From an uncultured Actinomycetes bacterium (GTDB lineage: Bacteria > Actinomycetota > Thermoleophilia > UBA2241), in contig CAVPVX010000007.1 of assembly GCA_963709345.1 (NCBI GenBank), positions 640,001-704,000 on the forward strand: 64,000 bases of DNA, read 5' to 3'. The notes under the pieces are model-generated. The model was not told where the DNA came from and made no database searches. It saw only the letters and a list, made by a program, of their open reading frames with translations. How positions within the stretch are numbered: position 1 is the first letter of the stretch; every line of letters starts with the position of its first letter. The translations under genes and the position numbers were made by a program. This document shows positions 4,475-28,713 of this stretch, one piece after another.

Positions 4475-5337
4475 GACAGGAGTTCGGCGGCCGCGGCGGC
4501 CGTTCGGGGAGCTTCACGAGGGTCGCGCCCGAGGCGCCGCCACAGCGTGACCAACAAGGGCTCGCGCAGGCGGTTCGCAGCGAGCAGACGGGCGCCGGCG
4601 TCACCGAAGTCCCAGGCGCCGACGCTCACCACGCGCCCCTCGTCGAGGAGGAGCAGCTCGTCGCAAAGCGCCCAGGCGAGGTCGATGTCGTGCGTCGCGA
4701 GCACCAGCGTCACCCCGCCGTCCTTGAGCCGCCGCAGGATGTGCACAAGCTCGCGCCGCGTCTGAGGGTCGAGGCTCACGAAAGGCTCGTCGAGCAAGAG
4801 CAGACGAGGCTTCATCGCGAGCACGCCGGCCAGGGCGAGCCGCCGCTGTTCGCCCCCGGAAAGCGTGTACGGGTGGCGGTCGCCGAAGTCCGCCGGCGGC
4901 AGCCCCGACAGATCCATCGCCGCATCGACCGCAGCCGTGACATCGGCGTCGGACCAGCCCAGACGACGCGGACCAAAGGCCACGTCCTCCTTCGCCGTCG
5001 CCGCGAAGAGCTGCAGCTCGGGCGCCTGGAACACGAGGCCGACCTCACGGCGCAGCTCCGCGTGGCCCGACTCACCAGAGGCACACCCGTCGAGGAAGAC
5101 GACGCCGGACTCGGCCTCGTCGAGTCCGCGCACGACCTGCAGAAGCGTCGACTTGCCGGAGCCTGACGCCCCCAGCAACGCCAGCGACCCGCCGGCGGCC
5201 AGCTCGAAGCTCACGTCGCGAAGGGCGGGTATCGCACGCCGCCCCTCGCTGTAGGAGAAGCCGACACCGCGGCAAGCGACGGCTATGCCGGGCGGCGAGC
5301 CTCCCCGGCCGGCCGGTGCCGAGGACCTCTGGCTCAC
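4471..5337 (-). CDS. ecfA2: ECF transporter ATPase A2
   Basis: GASGSGKS, VFQAPELQLF, LSGGEQRR and LLLDEP; next to ecfT. Confidence 0.92.
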   Translation of the reverse strand: MSQRSSAPAGRGGSPPGIAVACRGVGFSYSEGRRAIPALRDVSFELAAGGSLALLGASGSGKSTLLQVVRGLDEAESGVVFLDGCASGESGHAELRREVGLVFQAPELQLFAATAKEDVAFGPRRLGWSDADVTAAVDAAMDLSGLPPADFGDRHPYTLSGGEQRRLALAGVLAMKPRLLLLDEPFVSLDPQTRRELVHILRRLKDGGVTLVLATHDIDLAWALCDELLLLDEGRVVSVGAWDFGDAGARLLAANRLREPLLVTLWRRLGRDPREAPRTAAAAAELLS

Positions 5338-6188
5338 GACGGCCCCTGCAGAGCGCCGACGAGATCGTCCAGCGTCAGCGGCAACGGGCCGTCGAGACGG
5401 CGCCCGCGGCCGGCGAGCTCGAGCGCGACCTCACCGGCCGCGGGCAGCCCGAGACCCAGACGCCGCACCAGAGCGCCGTCGCCGAAGAGACCGGCGGCGG
5501 CGCCCGCGTACACGACAGACCCGCGTTCGAGCGCCAGCGCGCGGTCGGCGCCGGGCACCTCGTCCATCTCCTGCGTGACGAAGACGATCGCGAGGCCGCC
5601 GTCCCGCAGCGCCGCGACGGCCTCGAGCACCTCTTCGCGGCCCGCCGGGTCGAGCATCGCCGTCGGCTCGTCCAGCACCAGCACCTTCCGCGGCACGGCC
5701 AGGACGCCCGCCAGCGCCGTGCGCTGCTTCTGGCCGCCGGAGAGCAGGTGCGGCTCGCGGCGGCGCAGGTCGCCCAGCCCGAACCTCTCAAGCATCTCGT
5801 CGACCCGGGCCCGCATGTCGGCCGGCGGCCAGCCGAGGTTCTCGAGGCCGAAGGCTATGTCGTCCTCCACGCAGTCGGCGACCAGCTGGTTCTCGGGATT
5901 CTGGAAAAGGACGCCCACGTCTCGCCGCGCCCCGAACCTGCCATCCTCGCTCAGCAGGTCGTGCCCGACGGCGACGGCGCGACGCGCGAAGGCGGCCTTC
6001 TCGAGGCCGCCCAGGATACGCGCCAGCGTGGACTTGCCGGAGCCGTTGGCGCCCACGACGGCGAGTGTCCGCCCGGCCTCGACCACCAGGGAGAGGTCGG
6101 CGAGCGCGTCGGCGCGCGCGCCGGCGTACCGGTAGTGCAGACCGGCGATGTCGACGAGCGGAGGTGAGCTGGGCAGAGGCGGGATCAT
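5334..6188 (-). CDS. ecfA1: ECF transporter ATPase A1
   Basis: GANGSGKS, FQNPENQLV, LSGGQKQR and LDEPTAMLDP; start codon uncertain. Confidence 0.92.
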   Translation of the reverse strand: MIPPLPSSPPLVDIAGLHYRYAGARADALADLSLVVEAGRTLAVVGANGSGKSTLARILGGLEKAAFARRAVAVGHDLLSEDGRFGARRDVGVLFQNPENQLVADCVEDDIAFGLENLGWPPADMRARVDEMLERFGLGDLRRREPHLLSGGQKQRTALAGVLAVPRKVLVLDEPTAMLDPAGREEVLEAVAALRDGGLAIVFVTQEMDEVPGADRALALERGSVVYAGAAAGLFGDGALVRRLGLGLPAAGEVALELAGRGRRLDGPLPLTLDDLVGALQGPS

Positions 6189-6282
6189 ACGAGCCGAAGC
6201 TTATCGCATCGTCCACGGCGGCCCGGCCGTCCCGGCCGGCATGGCCACCGGATGCCTCGCCGGCCGCTGCGATGGGAGCGGA

Positions 6283-6331
6283 ACCATGAGCGACGGGGCG
6301 GGCCCTTCGAGCCCGCCCCGTCGCTCATGGT
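6283..6331 (-). terminator. 21-bp stem hairpin closing the hdr/sulfurtransferase operon
   Basis: ACCATGAGCGACGGGGCGGGC (6283-6303) pairs perfectly with GCCCGCCCCGTCGCTCATGGT (6311-6331), about 50 nt after the FmdB stop. Confidence 0.75.
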
Positions 6332-6381
6332 CATTGGGTACTGCCGACGGACGGCGCGACCGCGCCGCGAGATCGTCAGCC

Positions 6382-6582
6382 TCAGCCGAACCCGCTGCTG
6401 CGCTGCGGAGCGCCGCACGACGGATCCGAGAGGGCGCCGTTGCGGAAGAAGCTCGCGAGCGTCTGCCGCACATGCTGCGAGCGACACTCGGGACAGCGCT
6501 TCTGTTTGTCGCGTATCGCGACCCGCGTCAGAACCTCGAACGTGTGGCCGCAGTCCTTGCAGATGAGATCGATGTGCGCCAT
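6382..6582 (-). CDS. FmdB-family zinc-ribbon protein
   Basis: CKDCGHTFE...CPECRS (CxxC-CxxC) with a short Ser/Gly tail; AAGGAG SD. Confidence 0.85.
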   Translation of the reverse strand: MAHIDLICKDCGHTFEVLTRVAIRDKQKRCPECRSQHVRQTLASFFRNGALSDPSCGAPQRSSGFG

Positions 6583-6616
6583 GGGCGGTGCCTGCTCCTT
6601 GGGTGAGTCGGGGGCG

Positions 6617-7099
6617 TCAGATGAACAGGTTGACGTTGGCCTCGTCGGCCTTTCCGAGGTAGGCCGCCACGCCCTCGAACTCGATGTCGTCGATGAGCTC
6701 CTCCTTCGTGAAGCCCAGGATGTCCATCGAGAGCGTGCAAGCGACGAACTCCACGCCCATCTCGCGGGCGCTGTCGAAGAGCTCCTCGAGCGACATTCCG
6801 CCGGCGTCCTTTGTGGCCTTCCTCATCATGGGACTGCCGGCTCCGGCGAAGTTCATCTTGGAGAGTCCGAGCTTCTTCGTGCCCTTGGGCATCATCCGGC
6901 CGAACATCGACTGAAGCGTAGACTTCTTGGCCTCGGTCGGGACCTTCTCCGGCTTGCGGAGGATGTTCAGACCCCAGAAGGTGCAGAAGATCGTGACGTC
7001 GTCGCCCATAGCGGCGGCGCCGTTGGCGATGATGAGTGCCGCCATCACCTTGTCGAAGTCGCCACTGAACAGGATGATCGTCTTCTTGGTCGTGTCCAC
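6617..7099 (-). CDS. DsrE2/DsrE-F-like sulfurtransferase
   Basis: LFSGDFDKVMAALIIANGAAAMG, FCTFWGL, SKMNFAGAG and ACTLSMD (conserved Cys). Confidence 0.92.
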   Translation of the reverse strand: MDTTKKTIILFSGDFDKVMAALIIANGAAAMGDDVTIFCTFWGLNILRKPEKVPTEAKKSTLQSMFGRMMPKGTKKLGLSKMNFAGAGSPMMRKATKDAGGMSLEELFDSAREMGVEFVACTLSMDILGFTKEELIDDIEFEGVAAYLGKADEANVNLFI

Positions 7100-7163
7100 T
7101 CCAGCACCTCCAGTGCTGTCCGTTTGTTGCCTTTCGAGACCGGGGGCCTGCGCGGGCCCTGCC

Positions 7164-8150
7164 TCAGGAGGCGGATGCCTCGCGCAGGTACTCGGAGATA
7201 TCCTTGAACCGCATGGTGTCGCCGGCGGCGGTACTCAGGTTGACGAAGCACATGGGGCACATCGTGACGCACTCGGGCGCGGCGGCTCGCAGCTGCTCGA
7301 CGCGCTTCTGCGCGTTGGCGGCCGCCTTCTGCGGGTAGAGTGACTCGACGGGGCCGCCGCAGCACCAGGTCTGGCGACCCGCGTACTCCGGGTCGAGGAC
7401 GGTGACGCCGGCGGCCGCAAGCAGCTCGCGCGGCTCGTCGACGACGCCCTCGTAGCGGGCGAAGACGCAGGAGTCGTGCAGCACGACTTCAGCGGGGGAG
7501 ATGCCGGCGCGTTTGCCGCCGCTTCCGTTGCCGCCGAAGTCCCTCTCCGCCAGCACCTCGAGGTAGCTCTTCACCTCGACGTCGTACCCCTTGAGGATCT
7601 TGGGATACACGGTGCGAAGCATCGTCGTGGTGTGCGGGTCGACGGTGATCACGGTCTTCACGGCGTGCTTCTTGAACACCGCGTGGACCTTCTTGGCGTG
7701 CTCGACGACGACCTCGTCGAGCCCGAGATCGTAGGCCAGGGCGCCCGAGTACAGGTCGTCCTCGTAGAGAGCGCCGAACTCGACGCCGGCGTCGCGGAGC
7801 AGATGCACGACATTGATCGGCACCTGATCGTAGCGGGCGCGCTCCTTCGCCGAGGGGCGCGCCATGAACGCCGAGATGTTGACGAACCGGTTCACCTTTC
7901 GACCGAGGCCGGTGTACTTGGCCAGCCATGAGTCGCCGAACTTCACCTCGGCCTTGACGAGGCCTTCGATGTACGGGATGAGCTGGTACATCATCCCCGT
8001 GTAGAGCACGGTCGCGCCGCCGCGCGGGAGGCCGAGGCCCTCGGTCCACTTGGTCGCCACCTTGGGGGACAGCGGCAGCACCGACTTGCGCAGGCGCAGG
8101 TTGTCGCCGAGGATGCCGATCACGTCGCCGGTCGGGAGAGGCATCGTCAT
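7164..8150 (-). CDS. CCG-domain Fe-S protein (HdrB/HdrD-like); only the C-terminal CCG domain keeps its Cys ligands
   Basis: HDSC, WCCGG and TMCPMC in the C-terminal half; ATGA overlap with the upstream gene at 8147-8150. Confidence 0.88.
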   Translation of the reverse strand: MTMPLPTGDVIGILGDNLRLRKSVLPLSPKVATKWTEGLGLPRGGATVLYTGMMYQLIPYIEGLVKAEVKFGDSWLAKYTGLGRKVNRFVNISAFMARPSAKERARYDQVPINVVHLLRDAGVEFGALYEDDLYSGALAYDLGLDEVVVEHAKKVHAVFKKHAVKTVITVDPHTTTMLRTVYPKILKGYDVEVKSYLEVLAERDFGGNGSGGKRAGISPAEVVLHDSCVFARYEGVVDEPRELLAAAGVTVLDPEYAGRQTWCCGGPVESLYPQKAAANAQKRVEQLRAAAPECVTMCPMCFVNLSTAAGDTMRFKDISEYLREASAS

Positions 8151-8461
8151 CCCTCCCCGTGGCCGAACGTCGTACGGACGATGTGATGCCGGAGCGTGCG
8201 CACGTTCTCGGCGATGTGTACGCCGGACGGGCAGTTCTCCTCGCACATCTTGCACAGCAGACAGGAGAAGACGCTCTCCGTCTCCTCCCGAACCTTGTCC
8301 TCCATGCCGAGAAGCACGTGGCGGAACAGCTTGCGCACCTCGACGTCGACACCCATCGGGCAGATGGCGGAGCACACCCCGCAGTTCATGCAGGCGTCGG
8401 CGTTGAACTCATCAGAGCACGCCAGTTCCGTCGCCAGCCCGGGGTTCACGAGAGCAGTCAT
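8147..8461 (-). CDS. HdrC-like 4Fe-4S dicluster protein
   Basis: CMNCGVCSAICP and CLLCKMCEENCP; 104 aa. Confidence 0.9.
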   Translation of the reverse strand: MTALVNPGLATELACSDEFNADACMNCGVCSAICPMGVDVEVRKLFRHVLLGMEDKVREETESVFSCLLCKMCEENCPSGVHIAENVRTLRHHIVRTTFGHGEG

Positions 8462-8751
8462 TTGCCCTCCCTCTCCACCACTTGATAGCGGTAGTAGCCG
8501 TCGTCGGTGACTTCTTTGATCTCGGCGAGCCAGCCGTACTTGCGCAGGCCCATGACCCAGAACATCACCTCATGGGTCGGGCGCTCGACGGCGGCCGCGA
8601 TCTCGGGCACCGTGAGCGGTCCGTCTTCAAGCGCTGCGAGGATGCGGCGGCGCATGACCTGCTCGTCGCGGACGACCTCACGGACGTCGCGTTGTCCTGG
8701 AGCGGCGTCCCGGATCACGGGTCGCCGGCCTGACCCGGTGGTCTGCGTCAT
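8458..8751 (-). CDS. Small winged-helix-like protein inside the hdr operon
   Basis: RRILAALEDGPLTVPEIAAAVE...VMGLRKYG...YYRY wHTH pattern; ATGA overlaps at both ends. Confidence 0.8.
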   Translation of the reverse strand: MTQTTGSGRRPVIRDAAPGQRDVREVVRDEQVMRRRILAALEDGPLTVPEIAAAVERPTHEVMFWVMGLRKYGWLAEIKEVTDDGYYRYQVVEREGK

Positions 8752-10487
8752 GAGCAGCTCACCTCCATCATGCCGTCGATCATCGATCTGATCTGGGCGT
8801 CGGTGTAGCCCTGCAGGTCGGTCGCGTCCACGGGGCAGACGGGCACGCAGCCGCCGCAGCCCTTGCACGCCGTCTTGATGACCTGCGCCACCTGTTTGCC
8901 GTCCATCTCGACCTGCTCGATGGCGTCGTAGGGACACGCCTCAAGACACTTGCCGCACCAGGTGCAGGCGGCGGTGTCGACGATGGCGACCATCGGGTCG
9001 AGCTCGGCGTAACCGCGCTTGAGCATGGCGCCACTGTGCGTGACGGCGGCGAGGCCGCTGGCGACCGCCTCGGCCGAGTTCTTCGGCGACTGGCAGGAGC
9101 CACAGATGGTGACGCCGTCCACGATGGTCTCCACCGGGCGCAGCTTGGGGTGGATCTCGTTGTAGAAGCCGTCGTTGCCGACCGGCAGCTTGAGTACGCT
9201 GACGAGCTCGCCGTTCTCGCGCGGTACCATGCCGGTGACGAGCACGACGAGGTCGGCGGGTATGGCGACTTCTTCGCCCCCGGTGAGCAGGTCCTTCGTG
9301 GTGACCTTGAGACCGCCGGACGGGAGCTTCTCCACCTCCGGCGGTTCGTCGTCCGGCATGCGCAGATACAGCGAGCCCTTCTCACGCGACTCGTTCCAGA
9401 GCAGCTCGTACTTGCCGTAGGTGCGGATGTCGCGGTAGAGGTGGTACTGGCGCAGTCCGGCGAGGCCCTTCTCGGCCGCCTTGAGCGCAGCGTGCACGGC
9501 GGCTGTGCAGCAGTAGCGCGAGCAGTAGGTGTGAGCGCCTTCGACGCTCTCGTCCTGGCGACTGCCGACGCAGTAGATGTAGGCGATGGTCTTGACGGGC
9601 CGGCCGTTGTACTCGAGCGAACCGGCCGCTTCATCCACCATCTTCTTGAACTCCGGCAGAGTGACGACACCGTCCAGGCCGTAGCCGAACTCGCCGGCCG
9701 CCGGCTCGTAGGTGTCCGCGCCGGTGGCGACGATGATCGAGCCCACGTCGACCTGGACGGTCTCGAGCTGCTCGCCGTGGATGGCGATCGTCACCTGGTT
9801 GTTGCCGAAGCTGCCGCTCTTGGCCATCAGCTCGGCGTTCGTGTACACGGTGATCGCCGGATGAGCGCGCACCTTCTCTTCGAGGGTCGCGATCAGCTCG
9901 GCGCCCTTGCGCTCGTTCGGGTACATCTCGGCGAATCCGGCGACGCGGCCGCCGAGCTGCGGCTCCTTCTCGACGAGGAATACGCCGAGGCCGATCTCGG
10001 CCAAGCCGAGGGCGGCGCGCAGGCCGGCCACCCCGCCGCCCACCACAAGGCTTCTCGGCGTCGTCTCGACGACGATCGGCTCGAGCGGCTCGGTGAGGCG
10101 CGTCCGGTTGATTCCGGCGCGGACGAGCCGCACCGCCTTCTCGGTCGCGCCCGTATGGTCGTCGGTGTGCGTCCACGAGCACTGCTCGCGGACGTTGACC
10201 TGCGTGTACTGGAACGGGTTCATGCCGGCGCGCTTGGCCACGTCACGGAAGGTGACCGTGTGCAGCTTGGGCGAGCACGAGGCGACGACGAGCGCGTCGA
10301 GGCCCTGCTCCTCCGCGTCCTGCACGATCTCCTGCTGGGTCGCGTCGGAACAGGTGAACATGGCGGAGCGGGCGACGACGACGTCGTCGTCTCCCTTGAT
10401 CTCCTCGACGACCTTGTCGACGTCGACGTAGTCGCCGATGTTGCCGCCGCACTGACAGACGTACACGCCGATCTTGCGGCCGCTCAT
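8748..10487 (-). CDS. hdrA: Heterodisulfide reductase subunit A family flavoprotein, 579 aa (N-terminal domain plus C-terminal ferredoxin)
   Basis: IGVYVCQCGGNI, VVASCSP, NVREQCSW, VVGGGVAG, CVGSR..CSRYCC and two C-terminal CxxCxxCxxxCP. Confidence 0.95.
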   Translation of the reverse strand: MSGRKIGVYVCQCGGNIGDYVDVDKVVEEIKGDDDVVVARSAMFTCSDATQQEIVQDAEEQGLDALVVASCSPKLHTVTFRDVAKRAGMNPFQYTQVNVREQCSWTHTDDHTGATEKAVRLVRAGINRTRLTEPLEPIVVETTPRSLVVGGGVAGLRAALGLAEIGLGVFLVEKEPQLGGRVAGFAEMYPNERKGAELIATLEEKVRAHPAITVYTNAELMAKSGSFGNNQVTIAIHGEQLETVQVDVGSIIVATGADTYEPAAGEFGYGLDGVVTLPEFKKMVDEAAGSLEYNGRPVKTIAYIYCVGSRQDESVEGAHTYCSRYCCTAAVHAALKAAEKGLAGLRQYHLYRDIRTYGKYELLWNESREKGSLYLRMPDDEPPEVEKLPSGGLKVTTKDLLTGGEEVAIPADLVVLVTGMVPRENGELVSVLKLPVGNDGFYNEIHPKLRPVETIVDGVTICGSCQSPKNSAEAVASGLAAVTHSGAMLKRGYAELDPMVAIVDTAACTWCGKCLEACPYDAIEQVEMDGKQVAQVIKTACKGCGGCVPVCPVDATDLQGYTDAQIRSMIDGMMEVSCS

Positions 10488-13255
10488 GCCTTCACCTTCA
10501 CTTTCGACTCTTCCGCGACTTTCGCTCTCTCCAGATGAGCAGCGGCCTGTGCGACCGCGGCGCCCGCGTGGAGAATGGAGTCGGGGATGTCCTTGGCCCC
10601 GGCGGCCGCGCCCGCGACGAACACGCCGGGGAGGTTGGTGCGGCCGGGGTCCATGTCTTCGTCGGCTTCGCCGACGTAGTAGTAGTCGTCGAGCGCCAGG
10701 GCCTCGCCGGCGCCGTCGAAAAGCTCGGCGACGCCGCGACCGGGCTGGACGCCGACCGCGAGCACGACCATGTCGTGCTCCGTCTCGACGAGCGCGCTGC
10801 CGTTCTCGATGTCCTCGTAGCGGAGCGTGAGGTTGCCTTCGTCGGTCTCGGTGATACCCGAGACGCGGCCCTTCACGAAGTTGGCGCCCATGTCTTTGGC
10901 CTGCTCGTAGAACTCGTCGTACCCCTTGCCCACGGAGCGTACGTCGATGTAGTAGACGGTGACGTCGGCGAGCGGCAGGGCGCCCATGATGAGCTGGTTC
11001 TGCTTGACCGAGTACATGCAGCAGATCTTGGAGCACAGCGGGTTGTCCACGGTGTCGTCGCGGGACCCGGTGCACAGGATGTAGGCGATGTTGTCCGGCA
11101 CCTTGCCGTCGCTGGGGCGAAGCACGGCGTTGTACGGCCGGGTCGGCGCCAGCAGGCGGTCCATCTGCATGCCGGTGACGACGTTCTTGTAGCGGCCGAA
11201 TCCGTACTGCGGCTTCGCGTCGGCCGGGAAGAGGTTGAAGCCCGTGGCCAGGACCACGCTGCCGAACTCCGCCTCGATCTCCTTCTCGCGCATGCTGAAG
11301 TCGATGCAGTCGGCGGGGCAGATGTCCACGCACGCGTGGCACTCGGAGCAGACACCGCAGTCGAGGCAGCGGCTCGCGCTGTGCAGCGCCTCTTCCTCGG
11401 TCATCGTCTGCTCGTCCTCGTAGAACTCGCCCGGCGCAAGTGTCACGGTCTCCCGCGGGTTGAGAGGCTCGATGCGGCTGTACGTCGCCTGCCGCCTCAG
11501 AACGGCCTCCTTGTCCACCATCGGCAGAGGGCCGTCGAATGCCGCGGGATCCAGCTCCAGGCCCTGGAGGAAGCGGTCGATCATGAAGGCCGCCCGCCAG
11601 CCCTGGCCGGCGGCGGAAGTGATCATCGAGGGGCCGGAGACGACGTCGCCGGCGGCAAACACGCGAGGCACGCTGGTCTGCAGGGTGCCCGGATCCGCCT
11701 TGATCGTCCCGGTGCTGTTGATGGGGAGACCGAAGGCGCCCGCGTCGGGTCTCATGCCCGCGGCGACGACCACGAGGTCGCACTCAAGGCTTCCGAGGGT
11801 CTCGTCCTCATACTGCGGGCTGAAGCTGCCCTCCTCGTCGAACACCGAGACGCAACGCAGGAGCTCGACGCTGCGCACGGCGTCGCCGCCGCTGAACTGA
11901 CGCACCCCGCACGAGTTCTGGAAGGCGACGCCCTCCTGGCGAGCCTCCTCGACCTCCCAGGCATGCGCGGGCATCTGCTCGTGGGCTTCGAGGCTCGCCA
12001 CCTGTACCGATGCGGCCTTCAGCCGCAGCGCGGTGCGCGCCGCATCGAGGGCGACGTTGCCGCCTCCGACCACAACGACACGCTTGCCCTCGACGTCCAG
12101 CTCTTCGCCAAGCTTGGCGGCGCGGAGGAAGTCGGCGGAGCGCATGACGCCGCGAAGATCCTCGCCGGGCACGCCGAGCTTCGTGCCGAGGTGCGTACCC
12201 ACAGCCACGAGCACGGCGTCGTAGCCTGCCTCCTTCAACTCGTCCAGATCCTCGACGCGCGAGTCCGTCTCTATCACCACGCCGGCCGCCGTCACATTCG
12301 CGAGGTCCTGGTCGACGACTTCGTTCGGGAGGCGGTACGGCGGGAGCGCCAGACGCAGCAGACCACCCGGCTGAGACGCGGCTTCGAAGACCTTCACCCC
12401 GTAGCCCTTGCGGGCCAGATGCCAGGCCGCGGTCACACCGGCCGGGCCGGAGCCGATCACCGCCACCTTCTTACCGTTGGGATCCGCGATCTTGACGCTC
12501 GTCTCGCCCTTGGCGTAGTGAGTGTCTGCGATGAAGCGCTTGAGGCGGCGGATGGAGAGGGATCCCTCCAGATCGCCCCGCATGCACTCAGCCTCGCACG
12601 GGGCGTAGCACGCCCGGCCGAGGCTGCCGACCAGCGGCGTCGCCTCGCAGACAAGGTCGAACGCCTTCTCGTACTCGCCGCTGCGTATGAGCGCGACATA
12701 GCCGTGCGCCTTGATGCCCGCAGGGCACTCGTAGCTGCACGGCGAGACGCCCTCGCGGCTGATCACGGCCTTCTTCGGCACCGCCTGGGGGAAGGCGATG
12801 TACGCCGCCCGCCGCGACACCATGTCGGCGTTGAACTCGTCGGGGACGGCGACGCTGCAGGCCATCTCGCACTGGCGACAGCCGGTGCAGGCGACCTCGT
12901 CGACGTATTTCGGCTTCTGCAGGATCCGGGCGTGATAGGTGCCGTCGCCGTTGGCGCGGATGCCCTCGACCTCGGCGTACGTGAGTACGTCGATGTTGGG
13001 GTGGTGGATGGTCGCGGCCATCTTGGGGGTGGAGATGCAGCTGGCGCAGTCGAGCGTCGGGAACACCTTGCTGAGCAGGATCATCTTGCCGCCGACGCTG
13101 GCGTCCTTCTCGACGACGAGGACCTTGTAGCCCATGTCGCCGAGCTTGAGCGCCGACTCCATACCGCCGATGCCGCTGCCGACCACCAGAGCGTCGTACT
13201 TGAGCGCTGCACCTTCGGCGCCCCGCTCGATAGCTTCGCTTCGTTGGCTGTTCAT
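10484..13255 (-). CDS. HdrA-family flavoprotein with an inserted GltD/NfnB-like NAD(P)H oxidoreductase (HdrL-like), 923 aa
   Basis: HdrA core (VVGSGIGG, KVFPTLDCASC, CTGSRD..CSKICC, GAKDIPDS) interrupted by PCSYECP..GRACYAPCEAEC, IGSGPAG and VGGGNVALD. Confidence 0.93.
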   Translation of the reverse strand: MNSQRSEAIERGAEGAALKYDALVVGSGIGGMESALKLGDMGYKVLVVEKDASVGGKMILLSKVFPTLDCASCISTPKMAATIHHPNIDVLTYAEVEGIRANGDGTYHARILQKPKYVDEVACTGCRQCEMACSVAVPDEFNADMVSRRAAYIAFPQAVPKKAVISREGVSPCSYECPAGIKAHGYVALIRSGEYEKAFDLVCEATPLVGSLGRACYAPCEAECMRGDLEGSLSIRRLKRFIADTHYAKGETSVKIADPNGKKVAVIGSGPAGVTAAWHLARKGYGVKVFEAASQPGGLLRLALPPYRLPNEVVDQDLANVTAAGVVIETDSRVEDLDELKEAGYDAVLVAVGTHLGTKLGVPGEDLRGVMRSADFLRAAKLGEELDVEGKRVVVVGGGNVALDAARTALRLKAASVQVASLEAHEQMPAHAWEVEEARQEGVAFQNSCGVRQFSGGDAVRSVELLRCVSVFDEEGSFSPQYEDETLGSLECDLVVVAAGMRPDAGAFGLPINSTGTIKADPGTLQTSVPRVFAAGDVVSGPSMITSAAGQGWRAAFMIDRFLQGLELDPAAFDGPLPMVDKEAVLRRQATYSRIEPLNPRETVTLAPGEFYEDEQTMTEEEALHSASRCLDCGVCSECHACVDICPADCIDFSMREKEIEAEFGSVVLATGFNLFPADAKPQYGFGRYKNVVTGMQMDRLLAPTRPYNAVLRPSDGKVPDNIAYILCTGSRDDTVDNPLCSKICCMYSVKQNQLIMGALPLADVTVYYIDVRSVGKGYDEFYEQAKDMGANFVKGRVSGITETDEGNLTLRYEDIENGSALVETEHDMVVLAVGVQPGRGVAELFDGAGEALALDDYYYVGEADEDMDPGRTNLPGVFVAGAAAGAKDIPDSILHAGAAVAQAAAHLERAKVAEESKVKVKA

Positions 13256-13692
13256 GCGGTCGCCTTCCGGGTCGTCGGTCCCAAGCCGGAGAGGGACTCC
13301 GAGTATTCGTGCATGTAGTTGGTGAAGGGCTCCGCGCAGACGGAACAGATCGCGGCCATGCGCACTCTCTGCGGCTCGTAGCCCCTCTCGACCAGCAGTG
13401 CCTGCGCGTCCATCATGATCTTGGCGGTGCGCTGGCTGCAGTCGGGCAGGAACGCGCACTCCTCGCCGTCGGCGGCGATGAAGACTCCGTCGAAACCCTG
13501 CTCCATGGCGTAGAGGATCCAGCTCGGCTTGATACCACTGGTGCACGGAACGCTGATCACCATGACCTTGGGCGAGTAGTGCATGTGCGAACTGCCGGCC
13601 AGGTCGATGCCCGGGTCGGAGATGTTGTTGGTGCTGAAGACCAGGATGCGCGGGGAATATGCCTGATCGTCGAGTGCGGCAGTCTCGGCCAT
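13252..13692 (-). CDS. mvhD: MvhD-like (hydrogenase iron-sulfur subunit delta) protein with an atypical Cys pattern
   Basis: PRILVF..DLAG..Y..VISVPC..ILYAMEQGFDGV..EC..L..RGYEPQRV follows the MvhD pattern. Confidence 0.85.
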   Translation of the reverse strand: MAETAALDDQAYSPRILVFSTNNISDPGIDLAGSSHMHYSPKVMVISVPCTSGIKPSWILYAMEQGFDGVFIAADGEECAFLPDCSQRTAKIMMDAQALLVERGYEPQRVRMAAICSVCAEPFTNYMHEYSESLSGLGPTTRKATA

Positions 13693-13694
13693 CG

Positions 13695-13946
13695 TCACTT
13701 CATCTTCTTCACGAAGAGGCGCATGAAGCCCGGCTCCTCGACCACGCCCAGATACTCGTGACCCATCTTCTTGGACCACGCCGGGAGGTCCTTGGTCGTG
13801 CCGCTGTCGGTCGCCTGGACCTCCATCACGCCGCCTACGGAGACGCTGGGAATGCCCTTCTTGGCGGCCAGGATGGGACCAGGGCACGAGGTGCCTCGCG
13901 CGTCGACGACTTTCTCTACCTGGATGTTGGCGAGGTCTTCGGACAT
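13695..13946 (-). CDS. tusA: TusA-family sulfur carrier
   Basis: VDARGTSCPGP motif, ATDSGTTKDLPAW..GHEY; AAGGAG SD. Confidence 0.93.
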   Translation of the reverse strand: MSEDLANIQVEKVVDARGTSCPGPILAAKKGIPSVSVGGVMEVQATDSGTTKDLPAWSKKMGHEYLGVVEEPGFMRLFVKKMK

Positions 13947-14083
13947 GATGGTCTCCTTCGTGCTTGCTAGACTGGATTCGACGCTTGTGCTTGTGATTTC
14001 TTTCTCAATCCAAGGGCCGGTGAGCCCCTCTTCAATGTGCTGACGGAGCGGTGTCCTGCCGCGTGGCCGGCGGCTTCGGTGTC

Positions 14084-14512
14084 TCACACCTGAGGCGCCA
14101 CCGGCGCATCCGGCGCCCCAGTCCCATCCGGCCGGGCACGCGCGGCATCGAGGAACTCGGCGACCTGCAGCGATTCACCCTGTGCGACGTGCTGCTCCAC
14201 CAGCGCCTCGCGGATGAGGGCGCACGCCTCCATGAATTTGCGGTTCGTGACGCGGTAGTACACGGTCTGAGCCTCTTTGCGCGACGCCACGAGCCGGCGC
14301 TCTTTGAGCACGCGCAGGTGCTGCGAGACGTTGTGGACCGAGATACCGACCTCCTCGGCGAGGTCGCCCACGCACTTCTCCTCGTCGCAGATGGCGTGCA
14401 GGATCGCCTGACGATGCTCGTTCGCGAGAGCCCGACAGAGGTCTGCATGCATCCGAAAGAGCGGCTTGAGATCCGGCGCGGCGGGCGTGTCACTGTCGTT
14501 GCATACTTGCAT
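14084..14512 (-). CDS. ArsR/SmtB-family transcriptional repressor, Cys-rich
   Basis: ALANEHRQAIL..EKCVGDLAEEVGISVHNVSQHLRVLK..RKEAQTVYY. Confidence 0.93.
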   Translation of the reverse strand: MQVCNDSDTPAAPDLKPLFRMHADLCRALANEHRQAILHAICDEEKCVGDLAEEVGISVHNVSQHLRVLKERRLVASRKEAQTVYYRVTNRKFMEACALIREALVEQHVAQGESLQVAEFLDAARARPDGTGAPDAPVAPQV

Positions 14513-14548
14513 ACTTACATATATACGCTATAGATGTCGCGCCGTCAA
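14500..14548 (-). promoter_or_regulatory. Sigma70-like promoter TTGACG-N17-TATATA, probably leaderless, with an AT-rich repeat as candidate ArsR operator
   Basis: -35 at 14548-14543, -10 at 14525-14520, ATG 7 nt later with no SD; AAGTATGC repeated twice across the start codon. Confidence 0.6.
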
Positions 14549-14678
14549 GTGCAGTCATTCACAAGCCTGGCGCGCGCGTATTCTCGCCCGCCGGGCGGCG
14601 AGCTCGGTGTGCGTCCTGGGCGCCTTCTCCCACAGGCGCTCCCGCATCCGGCGCCGTGGCCGGCCCGGCAACGCAAGA

Positions 14679-14709
14679 GGGGCGGGCGGCCCTTCCGGCC
14701 GCCCGCCCC
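14679..14709 (-). terminator. Hairpin after rplQ (end of alpha operon)
   Basis: GGGGCGGGCGGCC / GGCCGCCCGCCCC 13-bp stem followed by TCTTG on the minus strand. Confidence 0.7.
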
Positions 14710-14738
14710 CCAAACAAGGGACGTCTGTCTGCTGCGCG

Positions 14739-15089
14739 CTACACCAGCTCGATGTACGCCTGCTCGCTGCCGTCGCCGGGGCGCGGGCCGAGCTTGATGA
14801 TGCGCGTGTACCCGCCGTGACGGTCGGCGTAGCGAGGCGCCACGTCGTTGAACAGCTTGTACACGATCTTCTTGTTGCGCAGCATGGCGATCGCCTGACG
14901 GCGCGCGTGCAGATCGCCGCGCTTGCCCAGCGTGATGGCCTCTTCGACCATCGGGCGGACTTCCTTGGCGCGCGCTACGCCGGTCTTGACCTTCTCGTGC
15001 TCGAGGACCTGGCAGGCGAGACCCGACAGCAGCGACCGCCGCTGGTCGGGAGCCATGTTGAACTTGCGGCCTGAGTTCTGATGGCGCAT
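14739..15089 (-). CDS. rplQ: 50S ribosomal protein L17
   Basis: MRHQNSGRK..RAKEVR..GGYTRIIKLGPRPGDG. Confidence 0.97.
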   Translation of the reverse strand: MRHQNSGRKFNMAPDQRRSLLSGLACQVLEHEKVKTGVARAKEVRPMVEEAITLGKRGDLHARRQAIAMLRNKKIVYKLFNDVAPRYADRHGGYTRIIKLGPRPGDGSEQAYIELV

Positions 15090-15090
15090 G

Positions 15091-16038
15091 TTACTCGTCA
15101 CCCCGCAAAGAGAGCCCGCGCTCGATGAGCTTTTCCTTGACCTCGTCGATGCTCTTCTTGCCGAAGTTCGGGATGTTGAGCAGCTCGGCCTCTGTCTTGG
15201 AGACCAGGTCGCCGACGGTCTGGATACCCTCGCGCTTGAGGCAATTGTAGGAACGGACGCCGAGCTCGAGCTCCTCGATGAGCACGTCGTCCATGCCGCC
15301 TCCGACCTGCATGGAGTCAAGCCCCTCGATCGGGAGCTCCTCGCTGGAACGCGTGCGGTCGGGGTCGGTGAAGATCGACATCCGGTCGACGAGGATCTCG
15401 GCGGCTTCCCTCAGCGCCTCTTCGGGCAGGAGAGCACCGTTGGTCGTGATGTCGAGTATGAGCTTGTCGTAGTCTGTACGCTGGCCGACACGGGCGCTCT
15501 CGACGTGGTACGAGACACGCTTGATGGGGCTGAAGATCGAATCCATCGGAATGACCCCGATGACCGTCTCCGGCGTCTTGTTGCCCTCAGCCTGCACGTA
15601 GCCCGTACCGCGCCTGACGGTGATCAGCATCTCGATGGCGCCGCCGTCGGAGAGCGTCGCGATCTGATGATCCGGGTTGAGGATCTCCAGCTCCGCCGGG
15701 ATGTCGACGTCGGCGGCCACGACCTTGCCGGGCTTGTCCTTGTACAAGCGGACCTGGACCTCGTCGAGCTCACCATGCAGGCGGCAGACGAGCTCCTTGA
15801 GGTTCAGGATGACGTCGGTGACGTCTTCCTTGACGCCCTTGACGGTGGTGAACTCGTGGGCGACGCCTTCGATCTTGACTGAACTGACGGCTGCGCCCTC
15901 GAGCGACGACAGCAGGACCCGGCGCAGCGCGTTGCCGAACGTATGCCCGAAACCGCGATCGAGAGGCTCGACCTCAAAGCGCGCGCGGTTGCCGGCGAGC
16001 TGCTCGCGGGTGATGTTGGGCATCTGAAACTGTAGCAA
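15091..16038 (-). CDS. rpoA: RNA polymerase alpha subunit
   Basis: [30 protein letters not shown] and NFGKKS; TTG start after AGGAGG. Confidence 0.98.
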
Positions 16039-16084
16039 CTGGCCTCCTGTAGACTCTTCGCCGCGGGTTAGCTGCTGCAGCGGA

Positions 16085-16705
16085 TTATTTGGAGTACAGC
16101 TCGACGATGAGCTGCTCCTGCACCGGGGCGTCGATCTCGTCGCGCTCGGGAGCGCGCAGGACCTTGCCGGTGAGGTTGTCATGGTCGACCAGGAGCCACG
16201 GCGAGACCGACGACGTGAGATCGGTCGCGGCGCGCACGGTCTCGACGGCCTTGCTGTTGGAGCGCATCGCCACCACGTCGTCAGGGCGGACCTGGTACGA
16301 CGGGATGTCGACCTTCTTGCCGTTGACGGTGAAGTGGGCGTGGCACACCAGCTGACGCGCCTGGCGCCTCGATGCGCCGAAGCCGAGGCGGTACACGACA
16401 TTGTCGAGCCGCATCTCAAGGATGCGCAGAAGGTTCTCGCCGGTGATGCCGTCCTTGCGGCTGGCCATCACGTAATACCGGTGGAACTGCTTCTCGAGCA
16501 CCTGGTAGTAGCGGCGCGCCTTCTGCTTCTCACGCAACTGCAGAAGGTACTCACTCTGCTTGATGCGGCCGCGGCCGTGCTCCCCCGGCGGGTACGAGCG
16601 CCGCTCTACCGCGCACTTGTCCGTGAGGCACCGCTCGCCCTTGAGAAAGAGCTTCTCAGCCTCGCGGCGACACTGCTTGCACTGTGCTGACGTATCTTTC
16701 GCCAC
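16085..16705 (-). CDS. rpsD: 30S ribosomal protein S4 (zinc-binding form)
   Basis: [35 protein letters not shown]. Confidence 0.98.
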
Positions 16706-16715
16706 GTAGACCTTC

Positions 16716-17114
16716 CTAGACCCTGCGACGCTTGCGCGGGCGGCAGCCGTTGTGCGGCACCGGCGTCACGTCTTTGACACTGATGATCTCGAGGCCGGCG
16801 GCCTGCAGCGACCGCACGGCGGTCTCGCGGCCCGAACCCGGGCCACGCACGAAGACCTCGACCTTCTGGAGACCCTGCTCCATGCCCTTCTTGGCGCATG
16901 ACTCCGCCGTCACCTGTGCGGCGAACGGCGTGCTCTTGCGCGAACCCTTGAAGCCGACCGATCCGGCGCTCTCCCACGCGATGACGTTGCCCTCTTTGTC
17001 GGTGAGCGTCACCAGCGTGTTGTTGAACGACGTCTTGATGTGCGCCTGGCCGACGGCGATGTTCTTGCGGACCTTGCGCCGCTGACGACCCTTGGCTCTC
17101 TGAGGCTTAGCCAC
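16716..17114 (-). CDS. rpsK: 30S ribosomal protein S11
   Basis: [20 protein letters not shown]. Confidence 0.98.
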
Positions 17115-17143
17115 TCTGCTCTACTCCTCCGCTACTGGTGCGG

Positions 17144-17515
17144 TCACTTCTTGCGCTTGCCGCTGATCGTCCTCTTCGGACCCTTGCGAGAGCGCGCGTT
17201 GGTGCGCGTGCGCTGCCCGTTCACCGGCATGCCGCGACGGTGGCGGATGCCCCGGTAGCAGCCGATGTCCATGAGCCGCTTGATGTTCTGGGAGCGCTCG
17301 CGGCGCAGGTCGCCCTCGACCGTGACTTCACGGTCGATGGCGTCGCGGAGCCGGATGATCTCCTCTTCGGTGAGATCACGCACCTTGGTGTTCGGGTCGA
17401 TGCCCACGACACCGAGGACCTTGTTGGACGTCGACCGCCCGACACCGTAGATGTACGTGAGACCGATCTCGACCCGCTTCTGCGGCGGGATGTTGACGCC
17501 TGAGATACGTGCCAT
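17144..17515 (-). CDS. rpsM: 30S ribosomal protein S13
   Basis: [27 protein letters not shown]. Confidence 0.98.
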
Positions 17516-17521
17516 GCGGAC

Positions 17522-17635
17522 TTACCCCTGCCTCTGACGATGACGCGGGTTCGAGCAGATCACCTGCACGGTACCGCGCCGGCGGATGATCTTGCACTTC
17601 TCGCACATCTGCTTGACTGAAGCTCTTACCTTCAT
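17522..17635 (-). CDS. rpmJ: 50S ribosomal protein L36 (below the ORF-track cutoff)
   Basis: Translated by hand: [37 protein letters not shown]. Confidence 0.97.
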
Positions 17636-17707
17636 CGGTGATCCTCGCTTGTGCACGCGGTGCGCCTGAGGCCCCGCGCGCCGCCTCCGGGCGACCGCGC
17701 GCGGCCG

Positions 17708-17929
17708 CTACTTGAACCGGTACGTGATCCTGCCCCTGCTGAGGTCGTAGGGCGACAGTTCCACCTTGACCCTGTCTCCGGGCAGGATGCGGATGTAGTT
17801 CATGCGCATCTTGCCGGAGATGTGGGCGAGCACTTCGTGGTTGTTGTCGAGGTGAACGCGGAACATCGTGTTCGGCAACGCCTCGACAACCTCGCCCTCG
17901 ATCTCGATGGCTTCTTCTTTGTTCGCCAT
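17708..17929 (-). CDS. infA: Translation initiation factor IF-1
   Basis: [29 protein letters not shown]. Confidence 0.98.
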
Positions 17930-18042
17930 GCTCCCTACTCGTCGACAGACAGCGGCCTGACATACTACCATAAACCATGGGGCCCACAAACCCCACCATC
18001 CACGGCGGCGCGGCGGCCGAGGCCCGCGCCGTTCCCACGACG

Positions 18043-18816
18043 CTACACCGCTGCGCCACCATTCTCCGACCGGCGGCGCGTGAACACCCGCGGCGCCTTC
18101 TTGCCGACGCCCACCGTGTGCTCGAAGTGCGCCGAGAGCGAACCGTCGGCGGTGTGGATGGCCCACCCGTCGTCCGCGACGACCACCTCGTGCCCGCCGG
18201 CGTCGACCATCGGCTCGATGGCGAAGACCATGCCCTCCTCGAGTCGCGGGCCGCGCCCGGGATCCCCGTAGTTGGGGATCTGCGGGTCTTCGTGCATCTC
18301 CTTGCCCACACCGTGCCCGACCAGCGAGCGCACCACGCTGAAGCCCGCGGCCTCGACCACTTCCTGGATCGCATGCGAGATGTCACCCAACCGGCGGCCG
18401 TCTCGACACTCCGCGAGTCCGGCCTCCAGCGACTCCGCCGTCACCTCGGCCAGGCGGCGCGCCTCGGCTTCGACGAAGCCGATGAGGAGCGTTTGAGCCG
18501 AGTCGGCGATGTAACCGTCGAGCGTCACCCCGACGTCCAGGCTGAGCAGGTCTCCCTCCGCCACGCGATAGTCGCCGGGGATCCCGTGCACGACCATGTC
18601 GTTCGGCGAGGCGCAGATCGAGCCCGGAAAGCCCTGGTAGCCGAGGAACGTCGGGGTCCCGCCGCGCTCCCTGATGAAACGCTCGGCGAGCGCGTCCAGT
18701 TCCCCGGTCGTCATGCCCGGCCGAGCCGCGTCCGCAAGCGCGTCGAGGCAGTCGGCGAGGATCGCACCGGCAGCTGCGATCTTAGCGAGCTCGGTTGCCG
18801 ACCTGCGGACGATCAC
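18043..18816 (-). CDS. map: Type I methionine aminopeptidase
   Basis: VVHGIPG, GHGVG, AIEPM, SAHFEHT. Confidence 0.97.
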
Positions 18817-18822
18817 GCGGTG

Positions 18823-19491: not shown

Positions 19492-19498
19492 CGCACTC

Positions 19499-20764: not shown

Positions 20765-20786
20765 AGCCCCATCCCCCCGACGCGTT

Positions 20787-21263: not shown

Positions 21264-21264
21264 G

Positions 21265-21459: not shown

Positions 21460-21464
21460 ACGCC

Positions 21465-22025: not shown

Positions 22026-22043
22026 GGGGTCCTATTCTCCTTG

Positions 22044-28710: not shown

Positions 28711-28713
28711 GAC

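Follow-up and report, generated by a model that had tools for sequence, protein, structure and literature searches.

Results

A ten-gene unit on the minus strand

The stretch of DNA analysed here, referred to below as the window, comprises 64,000 nucleotides of contig CAVPVX010000007.1 from an uncultured Actinomycetes bacterium. At positions 6283-14548 it carries a compact group of genes in which a redox core of the heterodisulfide reductase (Hdr) type is accompanied by genes for two sulfur carriers, TusA and DsrE2. Since the window is GC-rich (0.63-0.74 in 2-kb windows), long open frames are present on both strands. The GC3 pattern identifies the minus strand as the coding strand of 6283-14548, and two long open reading frames on the plus strand (9036..10538 and 10535..13318) were rejected as genes, their GC content at the three codon positions (0.90/0.45/0.68) being the antisense pattern. 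Using GC3 together with Pfam and NCBIfam matches, we found on the minus strand all ten co-oriented genes that the initial annotation had placed here. Their order is arsR, tusA, mvhD, hdrL, hdrA, a winged-helix gene, an hdrC-like gene, an HdrB-like gene referred to as CCG, dsrE2 and fmdB, and the unit studied runs from 14512 to 6382 (Table 1).

Five start/stop overlaps couple the six genes from mvhD to CCG, in agreement with the ATGA junctions described initially. The more likely start of CCG is ATG 8144, two bases after the hdrC stop, and M3 is invariant across the family; mvhD could alternatively start at GTG 13698 and would then overlap the tusA stop, the two genes otherwise being 2 nt apart. 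The ATG of arsR (14512) is positioned 7 nt past the -10 box of a promoter-like site, a distance which suggests that arsR is probably leaderless. When the window and the arsR upstream regions of 26 relatives were aligned, the pattern TTGAC-N18-GTATATA-N-ATGCAA was kept at a level of at least 80% of the 27 rows, and the MQ(I/V) N-terminus of ArsR was conserved in the same alignment; that the unit has its own promoter, as had been proposed, is backed by this conservation. An 8-nt word, AGTATGCA, forms a direct repeat at 14495..14520 that spans the arsR start codon, and its ATGCAA portion is conserved in the relatives. The AGTATGCA repeat may be part of an operator. At the other end of the unit, the terminator hairpin folds with a minimum free energy of -83.1 kcal/mol over the 126 nt folded (z = -6.78), a stability that none of 200 shuffled sequences equals. 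It had been annotated as a 21-bp terminator; the hairpin is indeed present, but its stem is 24 bp long. A consensus promoter and terminator scan flagged neither the arsR promoter nor this hairpin, which it misses because a T tract is absent.

Table 1. Position and identity of the genes and signals of the unit and of its two flanking genes, in window coordinates
Feature	Position	Strand	Description
rplQ (upstream flank)	14739..15089	-	end of ribosomal/rpoA operon; own hairpin terminator at ~14710..14670
promoter-like site	14520..14548	-	-35 TTGACG 14548..14543, 17-nt spacer, -10 TATATA 14525..14520
arsR	14084..14512	-	142 aa; ArsR/SmtB family, PF01022 (HTH_5) 8e-13
tusA	13695..13946	-	83 aa; PF01206 1.2e-18; CPGP motif, active-site Cys21
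mvhD	13252..13692	-	146 aa; FlpD family, PF02662 2.8e-29
hdrL	10484..13255	-	923 aa; HdrA halves plus GltD/NfnB module
hdrA	8748..10487	-	579 aa; methanogen-type HdrA
winged-helix gene	8458..8751	-	97 aa; sub-threshold HTH matches
hdrC-like	8147..8461	-	104 aa; 2x[4Fe-4S] ferredoxin, Fer4_17 1e-10 / Fer4_8
CCG (HdrB-like)	7164..8150	-	328 aa (326 from ATG 8144); one PF02754 match, residues 222-305
dsrE2	6617..7099	-	160 aa; PF13686 4.1e-60 (202.7 bits); ACTLSM motif, Cys121
fmdB	6382..6582	-	66 aa; zinc ribbon, PF09723 (Zn_ribbon_8) 3.4e-10; TIGR02605 40.2 bits, cut-off 31.3
terminator hairpin	6282..6332	-	perfect 24-bp stem, 3-nt loop, no T tract
ecfA1-like ABC ATPase (downstream flank)	5334..6188	-	followed by ecfA2, ecfT, truA

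Seven core genes and a DsrE-type gene are conserved in four phyla

With tblastn, 263 related stretches were confirmed in a collection of 185,579 species, each represented by a single genome, and the best 80 were examined; in the in-register counts given below, only loci whose contig reaches the expected place are included. According to their database record labels, 77 of these 80 come from Actinomycetota (52), Bacillota (13), Dormibacterota (7) and Chloroflexota (5), and the order tusA-mvhD-hdrL-hdrA-winged-helix-hdrC-CCG is retained in loci of all four. The genes are found in register in 77 of 78 loci for hdrC, 76 of 77 for the winged-helix gene, 69 of 72 for hdrA, 61 of 66 for hdrL, 62 of 63 for mvhD and 60 of 62 for tusA. 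A DsrE2-type gene flanks the core in 53 of 60 loci, either downstream of CCG as in the window (43/74) or upstream (17/62); in the upstream form a dsrE2-like gene, a second tusA and a PF02635 DsrE gene directly precede tusA, which brings the carrier genes to four. The co-occurrence of tusA and dsrE2 with homologous hdr genes, anticipated from the window, is therefore borne out (tusA 60/62, DsrE2 family 53/60), whereas that of arsR is not, this gene being present in 28 of 62 loci only. Since fmdB is found in 6 of 80, the ten-gene unit as first drawn holds for the seven core genes and the DsrE-type gene, but not for arsR and fmdB, which lie outside the conserved unit and are lineage-specific, fmdB being a peripheral member.

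By record label, the Bacillota include four cultured hosts, namely Desulfotruncus alcoholivorax (DSM 16058), D. arcticus (DSM 17038), Desulfotomaculum copahuensis and a Desulfallas sp.; the gene set also recurs in uncultured bacteria of soil and sediment. Relatives carry labels of Thermoleophilia or Actinomycetota metagenome-assembled genomes, which fits the anaerobic actinobacterium suggested by the initial annotation. For the CCG protein alone, database searches gave 1779 relatives at E<=1e-10, and 119 clusters at E<=1e-30 in a 50%-clustered library. The protein is found in 14 of the 36 other species of the host genus, and 24 other genomes of the class gave a single weak match (34% identity, 3e-22). 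In a quick tree of 77 CCG proteins, the sequences grouped mostly by phylum, with nine changes of phylum label against a minimum of four (an Acidimicrobiaceae row, for example, falls within a Bacillota clade with SH-aLRT 100), from which it follows that the unit moves between lineages. Clustering of the flanking open reading frames of the window and the 80 loci gave, as the most widely shared families outside the genes of the module, the extra DsrE of the upstream form (18 loci) and one family without a Pfam match (12 loci).

Several loci depart from the common arrangement. One (L094) has the CCG gene alone. Another, from a Thermoleophilia genome (L030), contains a second, divergent copy 2.7 kb from the main module, at 13636-18818 on the minus strand, with arsR (58%), tusA (48%), mvhD (29%), an hdrA-like gene (43%), the winged-helix gene (37%) and hdrC (27%); tblastn gave no hdrL or CCG match in it, and it may represent a sister system.

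Sequencing runs were also searched with the words of the window, and no run reached half of them (best DNA runs 0.24 and 0.20). Contigs of two metatranscriptomic runs of one study, X19 and X20, cover 29 of 30 bins, though only thinly over arsR, with 64 and 29 pieces at 99% identity or more and the rest at 90-99%. This is a weak hint that the modules of relatives are transcribed, since DNA can be present in an RNA library and genes cannot be ranked by contig depth. Contigs of X19 that match 7098..8493 and 10483..13202, from other organisms 90-95% alike, join across hdrC-CCG and across hdrL, which suggests candidate natural variants of the module that are without hdrL or hdrC-CCG (mvhD being followed directly by hdrA).

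The unit is inserted between rplQ and ecfA1

In the window the unit is flanked by rplQ and an ecfA1-like gene; the names ecfA1, ecfA2, ecfT and truA are labels taken from translations and gene order and not from a family-library search. In all five genomes of the same genus that were compared (three without the module and two with the module at another site) rplQ is directly followed by ecfA1, with a spacer of roughly 160-190 bp. Both edges of this spacer are recognisable in the window, and the motif GATGCG(G/A)TAAGCTTCG close to the start of ecfA1 is common to the window and the relatives. Given the rplQ-ecfA1 adjacency in five of five genomes, the 8.4-kb unit is a self-contained insertion at this place. 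Neither rplQ nor rpoA occurs within 10 kb in any of the 80 related loci. The GC content of the unit (0.657-0.679) is slightly under the contig means (0.689-0.701).

An insertion that travels could be a mere assembly of neighbours, in which the hdr core shares an island with a tusA/dsrE2/arsR/fmdB shell to which it has no functional tie. The inserted state, the nine phylum changes of the CCG tree against a minimum of four, and the failure of fmdB and arsR to stay with the core would all suit such an explanation; tusA, however, stands next to mvhD in 60 of 62 loci and DsrE-type genes are retained in 53 of 60, across four phyla, which would not be expected for unrelated cargo and makes this explanation very improbable.

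The rplQ terminator (14670..14710) and the module terminator (6282..6332) have similar G/C-rich arms, with GGGGCGGGC...GCCCGCCCC cores. Beyond rplQ, positions 14739..47252 of the minus strand hold the ribosomal-protein, secY, adk, map, infA, rpoA, EF-Tu, EF-G and rpoB/rpoC operons (labels from translations), and the gene order of this run looks ordinary except for the insertion after rplQ.

HdrL, HdrA and MvhD: an input core of known kind

HdrL aligns with the methanogen HdrA 5odc_A in two separate blocks, residues 21-168 with positions 145-291 and residues 632-916 with positions 289-573, and between them (residues 170-640) with NfnA, NfnB and GltD chains at 1e-84 to 1e-46. It comprises the thioredoxin-reductase-like domain of HdrA that binds flavin adenine dinucleotide (FAD) and an inserted NfnB/GltD-type NAD(P)H-FAD-2x[4Fe-4S] module, and has neither the N-terminal domain nor the C-terminal ferredoxin domain of HdrA. 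By these alignments the NAD(P)H module would sit inside the inserted-ferredoxin domain of the HdrA-type fold, 'inserted-ferredoxin domain' and the other names and boundaries being those that we take to apply to 5odc HdrA. The separate HdrA has the N-terminal domain, the FAD domain and the C-terminal 2x[4Fe-4S] domain, and the inserted ferredoxin domain is absent: residues 5-235 map to positions 1-231 of NF040770 and residues 240-575 to positions 320-652 of NF041778, and nothing matches 5odc 232-311. Its best solved relative is the methanogen HdrA (5odc_A, 3.3e-115), as against 1.8e-28 for sHdrA (6tjr_A). By sequence, HdrL and HdrA are complementary halves of a methanogen (5odc)-type HdrA. The initial annotation had the NAD(P)H module built into HdrA; Pfam, NCBIfam and the alignments with solved structures agree that it is built in, but locate it in HdrL and not in the 579-residue HdrA.

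The cysteines of all three proteins are highly conserved. In HdrL 21 cysteines are conserved in 52-53 of 53 rows (C468 in 49 and C492 in 42 of the 53), in HdrA 18 are conserved in all 65 rows, and in MvhD, a probable [2Fe-2S] electron connector, five are conserved in 61 of 61.

The host genome encodes a paralogous cluster on contig C7 (493165-501343; L112), in which a fused HdrL-HdrA of 1481 residues (493165-497610; 37% and 35% identical to HdrL and HdrA, respectively) is followed by mvhD, metV (PF12225, 3e-31), metF (PF02219, 2e-45), hdrC and a two-CCG hdrB. The fusion argues, as a Rosetta stone, that HdrL and HdrA act as one unit. The cluster itself is of the Moorella MetFV-HdrABC-MvhD methylene-tetrahydrofolate reductase type, here in a Thermoleophilia-like genome, and hints at a Wood-Ljungdahl-type metabolism. 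According to passages of the published work, the Moorella complex oxidises NADH and has two FAD in HdrA (PMC5861303), and HdrL is described in part of another report as a 'heterodisulfide reductase/glutamate synthase fusion' beside hdrA and mvhD in Desulfobacterium autotrophicum (PMC2702500). Since hdrL, hdrA and mvhD are common to the MetFV cluster and HdrL has been described in D. autotrophicum, the input side of the unit is of a known kind.

Two further Hdr sets are present in the same genome, both on contig C10. The one at 96386-103530 (L113) has hdrC-hdrB-hdrA-mvhD followed by three Flx-like genes (a PF13183 protein, a PF17179 protein and an NAD_binding_1/DHODB Fe-S protein), and the other lies at 184-194 kb.

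A single-cluster CCG protein and a winged-helix protein on the output side

The distinctive part of the unit is its output side, which comprises the single-CCG HdrB-like protein, a short HdrC, the winged-helix protein, TusA and DsrE2. The hdrC-like protein is shorter than methanogen HdrC and scores 53.6 bits on TIGR03290 (cut-off 160), and its eight cysteines are conserved in 75-76 of 76 sequences. Cysteine is missing throughout the first half of the CCG protein in 28 homologues, the most distant of them 28% identical; Y134, G136, P172 and H173 are invariant there instead, and D171 is conserved among the closer relatives. The second half keeps C228, C263, C264, C298 and C301, invariant in the same 28 homologues. 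With one five-cysteine motif left, the protein should therefore hold one non-cubane [4Fe-4S] cluster instead of two. Its AF2 model (pLDDT 81.8, pTM 0.84) is matched by Foldseek to EtfD (9ojn), LutA (9a6l) and HdrB (8rvy_b, 5odc_B and 7bkb_B), so that the predicted fold is that of HdrB, LutA and EtfD.

The winged-helix protein has no cysteine and a core motif WVMGxRKYG, and its gene overlaps the neighbouring genes with both its start and its stop. Pfam helix-turn-helix matches were sub-threshold and NCBIfam gave none. In the AF2 model (pLDDT 85.1) helices at residues 23-28, 30-43, 48-55 and 59-71 are followed by a two-strand wing; Foldseek returned generic winged-helix folds only, none at E<=0.001, and a search of the ESM Atlas gave nothing beyond small winged-helix proteins. 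A profile search produced 2809 matches at E<=0.001, the best 120 of which are all close relatives, some labelled 'MarR family regulator' or 'hypothetical'. ArsR/SmtB repressors dimerise through N- and C-terminal helices, and no counterpart of these helices is seen in the model. A complex predicted for the winged-helix protein with CCG and HdrC from their own alignments scored 0.00 (mark 0.32, controls not folded), which counts neither for nor against a contact. Because of the fixed, translationally coupled place of the gene in 76 of 77 loci, we consider a subunit or adaptor somewhat more likely than a second repressor.

Sulfur carriers and the lack of a DsrC match

The flanking of the Hdr-type core by two carriers was confirmed, the CPGP motif of TusA and the ACTLSM motif of DsrE2 both being present. 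Cys21 of TusA is conserved in 63 of 63 sequences and Cys121 of DsrE2 in 59 of 60. TusA scores 45.2 bits on the TusA model, and DsrE2 reaches 81.8 bits on the NCBIfam equivalog NF047629, under its cut-off of 210.

As listed initially, none of mvhAG, flx, lbpA, apr and dsr is in the cluster. We found no mvhA or mvhG among the ten genes or their conserved neighbours, the rest of the genome not having been searched for them, and no apr gene in the unit, the conserved neighbour families or the Desulfotruncus flanks, apr likewise not having been searched genome-wide. Genes of the Flx type are located elsewhere in the host genome (C10, 96-99 kb). DsrC had no match in the 98%-complete host genome, nor in four of five other module-bearing genomes, Desulfotruncus alone having it. 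Because DsrC, the usual protein substrate of bacterial Hdr-like enzymes, is missing, TusA and DsrE are the candidate substrates at hand. The Flx-Hdr-like set on contig C10 resides in this same genome without a DsrC match. The host genome also gave no match to NIR_SIR (the sulfite reductase type), and no YeeE/YedE importer was found in it.

A second tusA with a small DsrE-family gene is found on contig C4 of the host (220480-223211), directly upstream of genes resembling nifS and nifU, labels that come from translations and not from a family-library search. If these labels are right, the pair is probably a separate sulfur relay for Fe-S or thiolation chemistry.

Regulators beside the unit

ArsR scores 84.1 bits on NF033788 (cut-off 55) and 45.8 bits on the BigR model (cut-off 155), and solved structures show generic ArsR/SmtB similarity (3pqj, 3e-7; 6o8l-type chains, 2e-6). 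The persulfide-sensing ArsR regulators SqrR and BigR have their two sensing cysteines in helices 2 and 5. The ArsR of the unit is rich in cysteine, as had been noted: of its five cysteines three are conserved, C26 in 25, C47 in 23 and C97 in 26 of 26 sequences, and this conservation suggests thiol chemistry as the signal. An arsR paralogue (39%) adjoins an fmdB paralogue, 82% identical to fmdB of the window, on contig C1 of the host (323467-324185), and the arsR-fmdB pair may represent an independent unit which became linked to the hdr module in this lineage.

In Desulfotruncus (L088, 1627-4028; L093, 3662-4000) a CsoR-family regulator and a SulP/STAS anion permease are divergent from tusA. 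This regulator has a CxxC at the first ligand position and is without the later His and Cys of the aligned Geobacillus CsoR 4m1p, which we take to be copper ligands. It is also without the second Cys seen in the aligned chain 7mq1, presumably a persulfide sensor of the CstR type, though the entry is titled CsoR.

As(III) sensors of the ArsR type likewise show three conserved cysteines, and one could imagine a selenium or metalloid system in which the TusA-like protein is a YedF-like selenium carrier, a metalloid is the signal for ArsR and the substrate of the Hdr core is Se(0), a selenotrisulfide or similar. Weak NCBIfam matches point the same way, namely those of tusA to YedF models (25.7 and 21.2 bits), of HdrL, HdrC and CCG to 'diclust_near_Sec' NF045663, and of the GltD part to YgfK. 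All of them, however, are far under their cut-offs and can be put down to domains held in common. For TusA the TusA model (45.2 bits) and PF01206 give the better scores, and no selD, selenoprotein or ars gene is present in the unit or among its conserved neighbours. We regard a selenium or metalloid role as extremely improbable.

Discussion

The unit is a conserved, mobile and uncharacterised Hdr module wired to sulfur carriers. It is not an sHdr, Flx-Hdr or Mvh-Hdr system and probably not a Qmo system, though it shares parts with several of them. Full-text literature searches found no publication describing tusA-mvhD-hdrL-hdrA-x-hdrC-CCG(-dsrE2), although reviews of HdrA contexts or survey supplements may list such clusters. 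The initial statement that the architecture is uncharacterised therefore stands for the gene set as a whole, but not for its electron-input core. That core is shared with MetFV-HdrABC-MvhD of the Moorella thermoacetica type, in which an HdrL-type, NADH-oxidising two-flavin HdrA works with MvhD, as described in part of PMC5861303; the output there is MetF/MetV with a two-CCG HdrB, whereas the unit is without metF and metV. FlxABCD-HdrABC of Desulfovibrio is likewise NADH-linked, has an MvhD-like connector and acts on sulfur borne by a protein, DsrC, according to passages of PMC10504309, but it has a separate FlxABC NADH module and a two-CCG HdrB, while the unit is without flx-like genes and the host genome without a DsrC match. 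MvhAGD-HdrABC of methanogens has homologues of HdrA, HdrC, HdrB and MvhD with a conserved FAD domain and conserved ligands (the best Protein Data Bank matches are 5odc and 8rvu). In contrast to its single HdrA, two-CCG HdrB and hydrogenase, the unit has a split HdrA with an NfnB module in place of the ferredoxin-side domain, a one-cluster HdrB and no hydrogenase. The hosts are not methanogens, and the heterodisulfide of coenzymes M and B (CoM-S-S-CoB) would not be expected as the substrate.

Two other groups of enzymes resemble the unit in function. DsrK of DsrMK(JOP) acts on the DsrC trisulfide with a ferredoxin-like 2x[4Fe-4S] part and one CCG non-cubane cluster. The likeness is one of function, sequence similarity being marginal (NF045796, 22-23 bits, cut-off 400), and the unit differs from DsrMK(JOP) in being soluble, in having no DsrM partner and in its carrier. 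NSR, Npsr, SuDH/NfnI and the T. maritima enzyme have, as presented in parts of PMC9431562, the same net reaction that we propose below, from NAD(P)H and sulfane sulfur to H2S. SuDH even shares the NfnB/SudA-like module with HdrL, but these enzymes are one- or two-subunit flavoproteins that act on free polysulfide or coenzyme A persulfide, with no Hdr core and no carrier proteins. A Qmo assignment was considered, as Gram-positive sulfate reducers have qmoAB-hdrCB, and was set aside, no apr linkage being seen in the flanks examined.

The system closest to the unit in its carriers is sHdr (types I and II), an Hdr-like Fe-S flavoprotein set that is also tied to TusA and DsrE-family carriers; in the relevant passages of PMC11094781 and PMC6067878 it is the one characterised Hdr-like system with this link, and it is oxidative. 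By this analogy the complex could oxidise carrier-bound sulfane sulfur (towards sulfite) and use the HdrL module to hand the electrons on to NAD(P)+, its NfnB part taking the place of the sHdr route by lipoate-binding protein and dihydrolipoyl dehydrogenase. Locally, the order hdrA-small gene-hdrC-hdrB is the same as hdrA-hyp-hdrC2-hdrB2 of sHdr as given in part of PMC6067878, and the module occurs in Chloroflexota, Actinomycetota and Bacillota, which, according to sections of PMC11094781, also have type II sHdr. The differences are, however, considerable. HdrA of the unit is of the methanogen type (5odc 3e-115) and not of the sHdrA type (6tjr 2e-28), being long, with extra N- and C-terminal domains, where sHdrA is short. 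Where sHdr has hdrC1B1 besides hdrC2B2 (or hdrB3), the unit has one hdrC-like and one CCG gene, hence no hdrC1B1 pair and one non-cubane cluster only. HdrL and MvhD are extra, etfAB/emo are missing, and lbpA and lipoate ligase genes, which sHdr has, are found neither in the unit nor among its conserved neighbour families, the sole GcvH (GCV_H) match of the genome being far off on contig C1 (152086-152445). The host also possesses the Wood-Ljungdahl-type MetFV-Hdr and Flx-Hdr-like clusters typical of strict anaerobes, and reduction of NAD(P)+ by sulfane oxidation would be uphill without a second acceptor. Taken together, the direction is likely reductive, and an oxidative complex appears quite unlikely.

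We propose instead that the unit encodes a reductase which is driven by NAD(P)H, possibly with coupling to ferredoxin, and acts on sulfane sulfur or a disulfide carried on TusA/DsrE, a reading to which we give an even chance. HdrL, HdrA, MvhD, the HdrC-like protein and the single-CCG HdrB-like subunit would form a soluble, cytoplasmic iron-sulfur flavoprotein complex of the Hdr type, with the winged-helix protein probably being part of it. HdrL and HdrA would replace the methanogen HdrA homodimer as an asymmetric heterodimer. NAD(P)H would reduce the NfnB-type flavin in the built-in module of HdrL; electrons would then cross the split ferredoxin domain and MvhD to the HdrA-type flavins, and pass from the HdrA flavin through the C-terminal clusters of HdrA and through HdrC to the single non-cubane [4Fe-4S] cluster of CCG. 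There an S-S bond presented by TusA/DsrE2, which may be that of a persulfide, a polysulfide or a carrier-carrier di- or trisulfide, would be cleaved reductively, releasing sulfide and regenerating the carrier thiols. Coupling to ferredoxin, by bifurcation or confurcation, is possible. In this lineage the thiol-rich ArsR-type repressor, expressed leaderless from the conserved promoter, would control the unit.

Several lines of evidence speak for this proposal, among them the tight core, the fused paralogue, the NADH oxidation by the Moorella complex and the lack of a DsrC match described above. The linkage to carriers is supported because genes of the TusA and DsrE2 types are associated with the core across four phyla and the active-site cysteines of the carriers are conserved. 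NAD(P)H input is supported because the module matches NfnA/NfnB/GltD and no hydrogenase, formate dehydrogenase or Flx gene is present in the unit. The cluster ligands are all conserved, with one five-cysteine CCG motif family-wide and the HdrB/LutA/EtfD fold. Finally, the regulators beside the unit carry conserved cysteines, in ArsR here and as the CxxC of the CsoR-like protein in Desulfotruncus.

Several points weigh against it. The role of the members is read from their genes, sequence does not fix the direction, and a persulfide-reducing or persulfide-oxidising function is suggested by gene association and cofactor logic; the oxidative nature of sHdr counts here as well. The S0/HS- couple lies near -270 mV. 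A persulfide is thus too low-potential to drive NADH-dependent ferredoxin reduction, and bifurcation would need an S-S species of higher potential. No YeeE/YedE importer having been found in the genome, the route by which sulfane sulfur enters the cell is left unexplained. The hosts include sulfate reducers that already make sulfide, and Dormibacterota and Acidimicrobiia are often described as aerobes. A metal(loid) signal for ArsR is possible given its low score on the BigR model. The carrier genes could also serve cofactor or cluster maturation, the second tusA-dsrE pair of the host adjoining nifS/nifU-like genes.

Another explanation separates the carriers from the redox reaction. The Hdr core would reduce a small-molecule disulfide, a polysulfide, a thiosulfate-derived species or the heterodisulfide of some thiol cofactor, and the part of TusA/DsrE2 would be limited to carrying or salvaging the sulfur that results, to be used for instance in making cysteine, Fe-S clusters or thio-cofactors. 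With no NIR_SIR-type sulfite reductase in the genome, reduced sulfur must be acquired; a SulP anion permease adjoins the unit in Desulfotruncus, MoaE is near it in nine loci, and the second tusA-dsrE pair stands beside the nifS/nifU-like genes (translation labels). In addition, DsrE3A and TusA of M. cuprina carry a thiosulfonate and not a persulfide, according to part of PMC4175335. The carriers are, however, linked to the core more tightly than any transporter or biosynthetic gene: no outside family, except for the extra DsrE, is found in more than 12 of 81 loci, and the conserved core opens with tusA, which adjoins mvhD. That the first CCG cluster has been lost also points to a substrate whose sulfur is free at one end, as it would be on a protein. 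We find a small-molecule substrate unlikely.

A more specific form of the carrier-linked reductase is conceivable, though we consider it unlikely: a third kind of Hdr/sulfur-carrier machine, a flavin-based electron-bifurcating NAD(P)H:ferredoxin oxidoreductase with a TusA-DsrE-type di- or trisulfide as the high-potential acceptor, in which the cysteine-free first half of CCG and the winged-helix protein would dock the carrier. If true, the TusA-DsrE di/trisulfide would be a bacterial stand-in for CoM-S-S-CoB or for the DsrC trisulfide where DsrC is absent, and zero-valent sulfur would become a source of conserved energy for fermenting or acetogenic Actinomycetota, Dormibacterota, Chloroflexota and Desulfotomaculia of soil and sediment.

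Among the devices by which anaerobes route electrons, Hdr-like complexes are the main ones still unexplained, and for most of the bacterial ones the 'heterodisulfide' is unknown. The unit described here names likely partners, TusA and DsrE, in its own operon, strictly syntenic in four phyla. As these partners are in the operon and cultured hosts exist, the question of what a bacterial Hdr reduces becomes directly testable. The split into HdrL and HdrA is a natural asymmetric HdrA dimer, useful for dissecting bifurcation. If the reaction is reductive, the unit would be a cytoplasmic, NAD(P)H-linked sink for sulfane sulfur in abundant uncultured lineages of wetlands and soils, which would bear on cryptic sulfur cycling.

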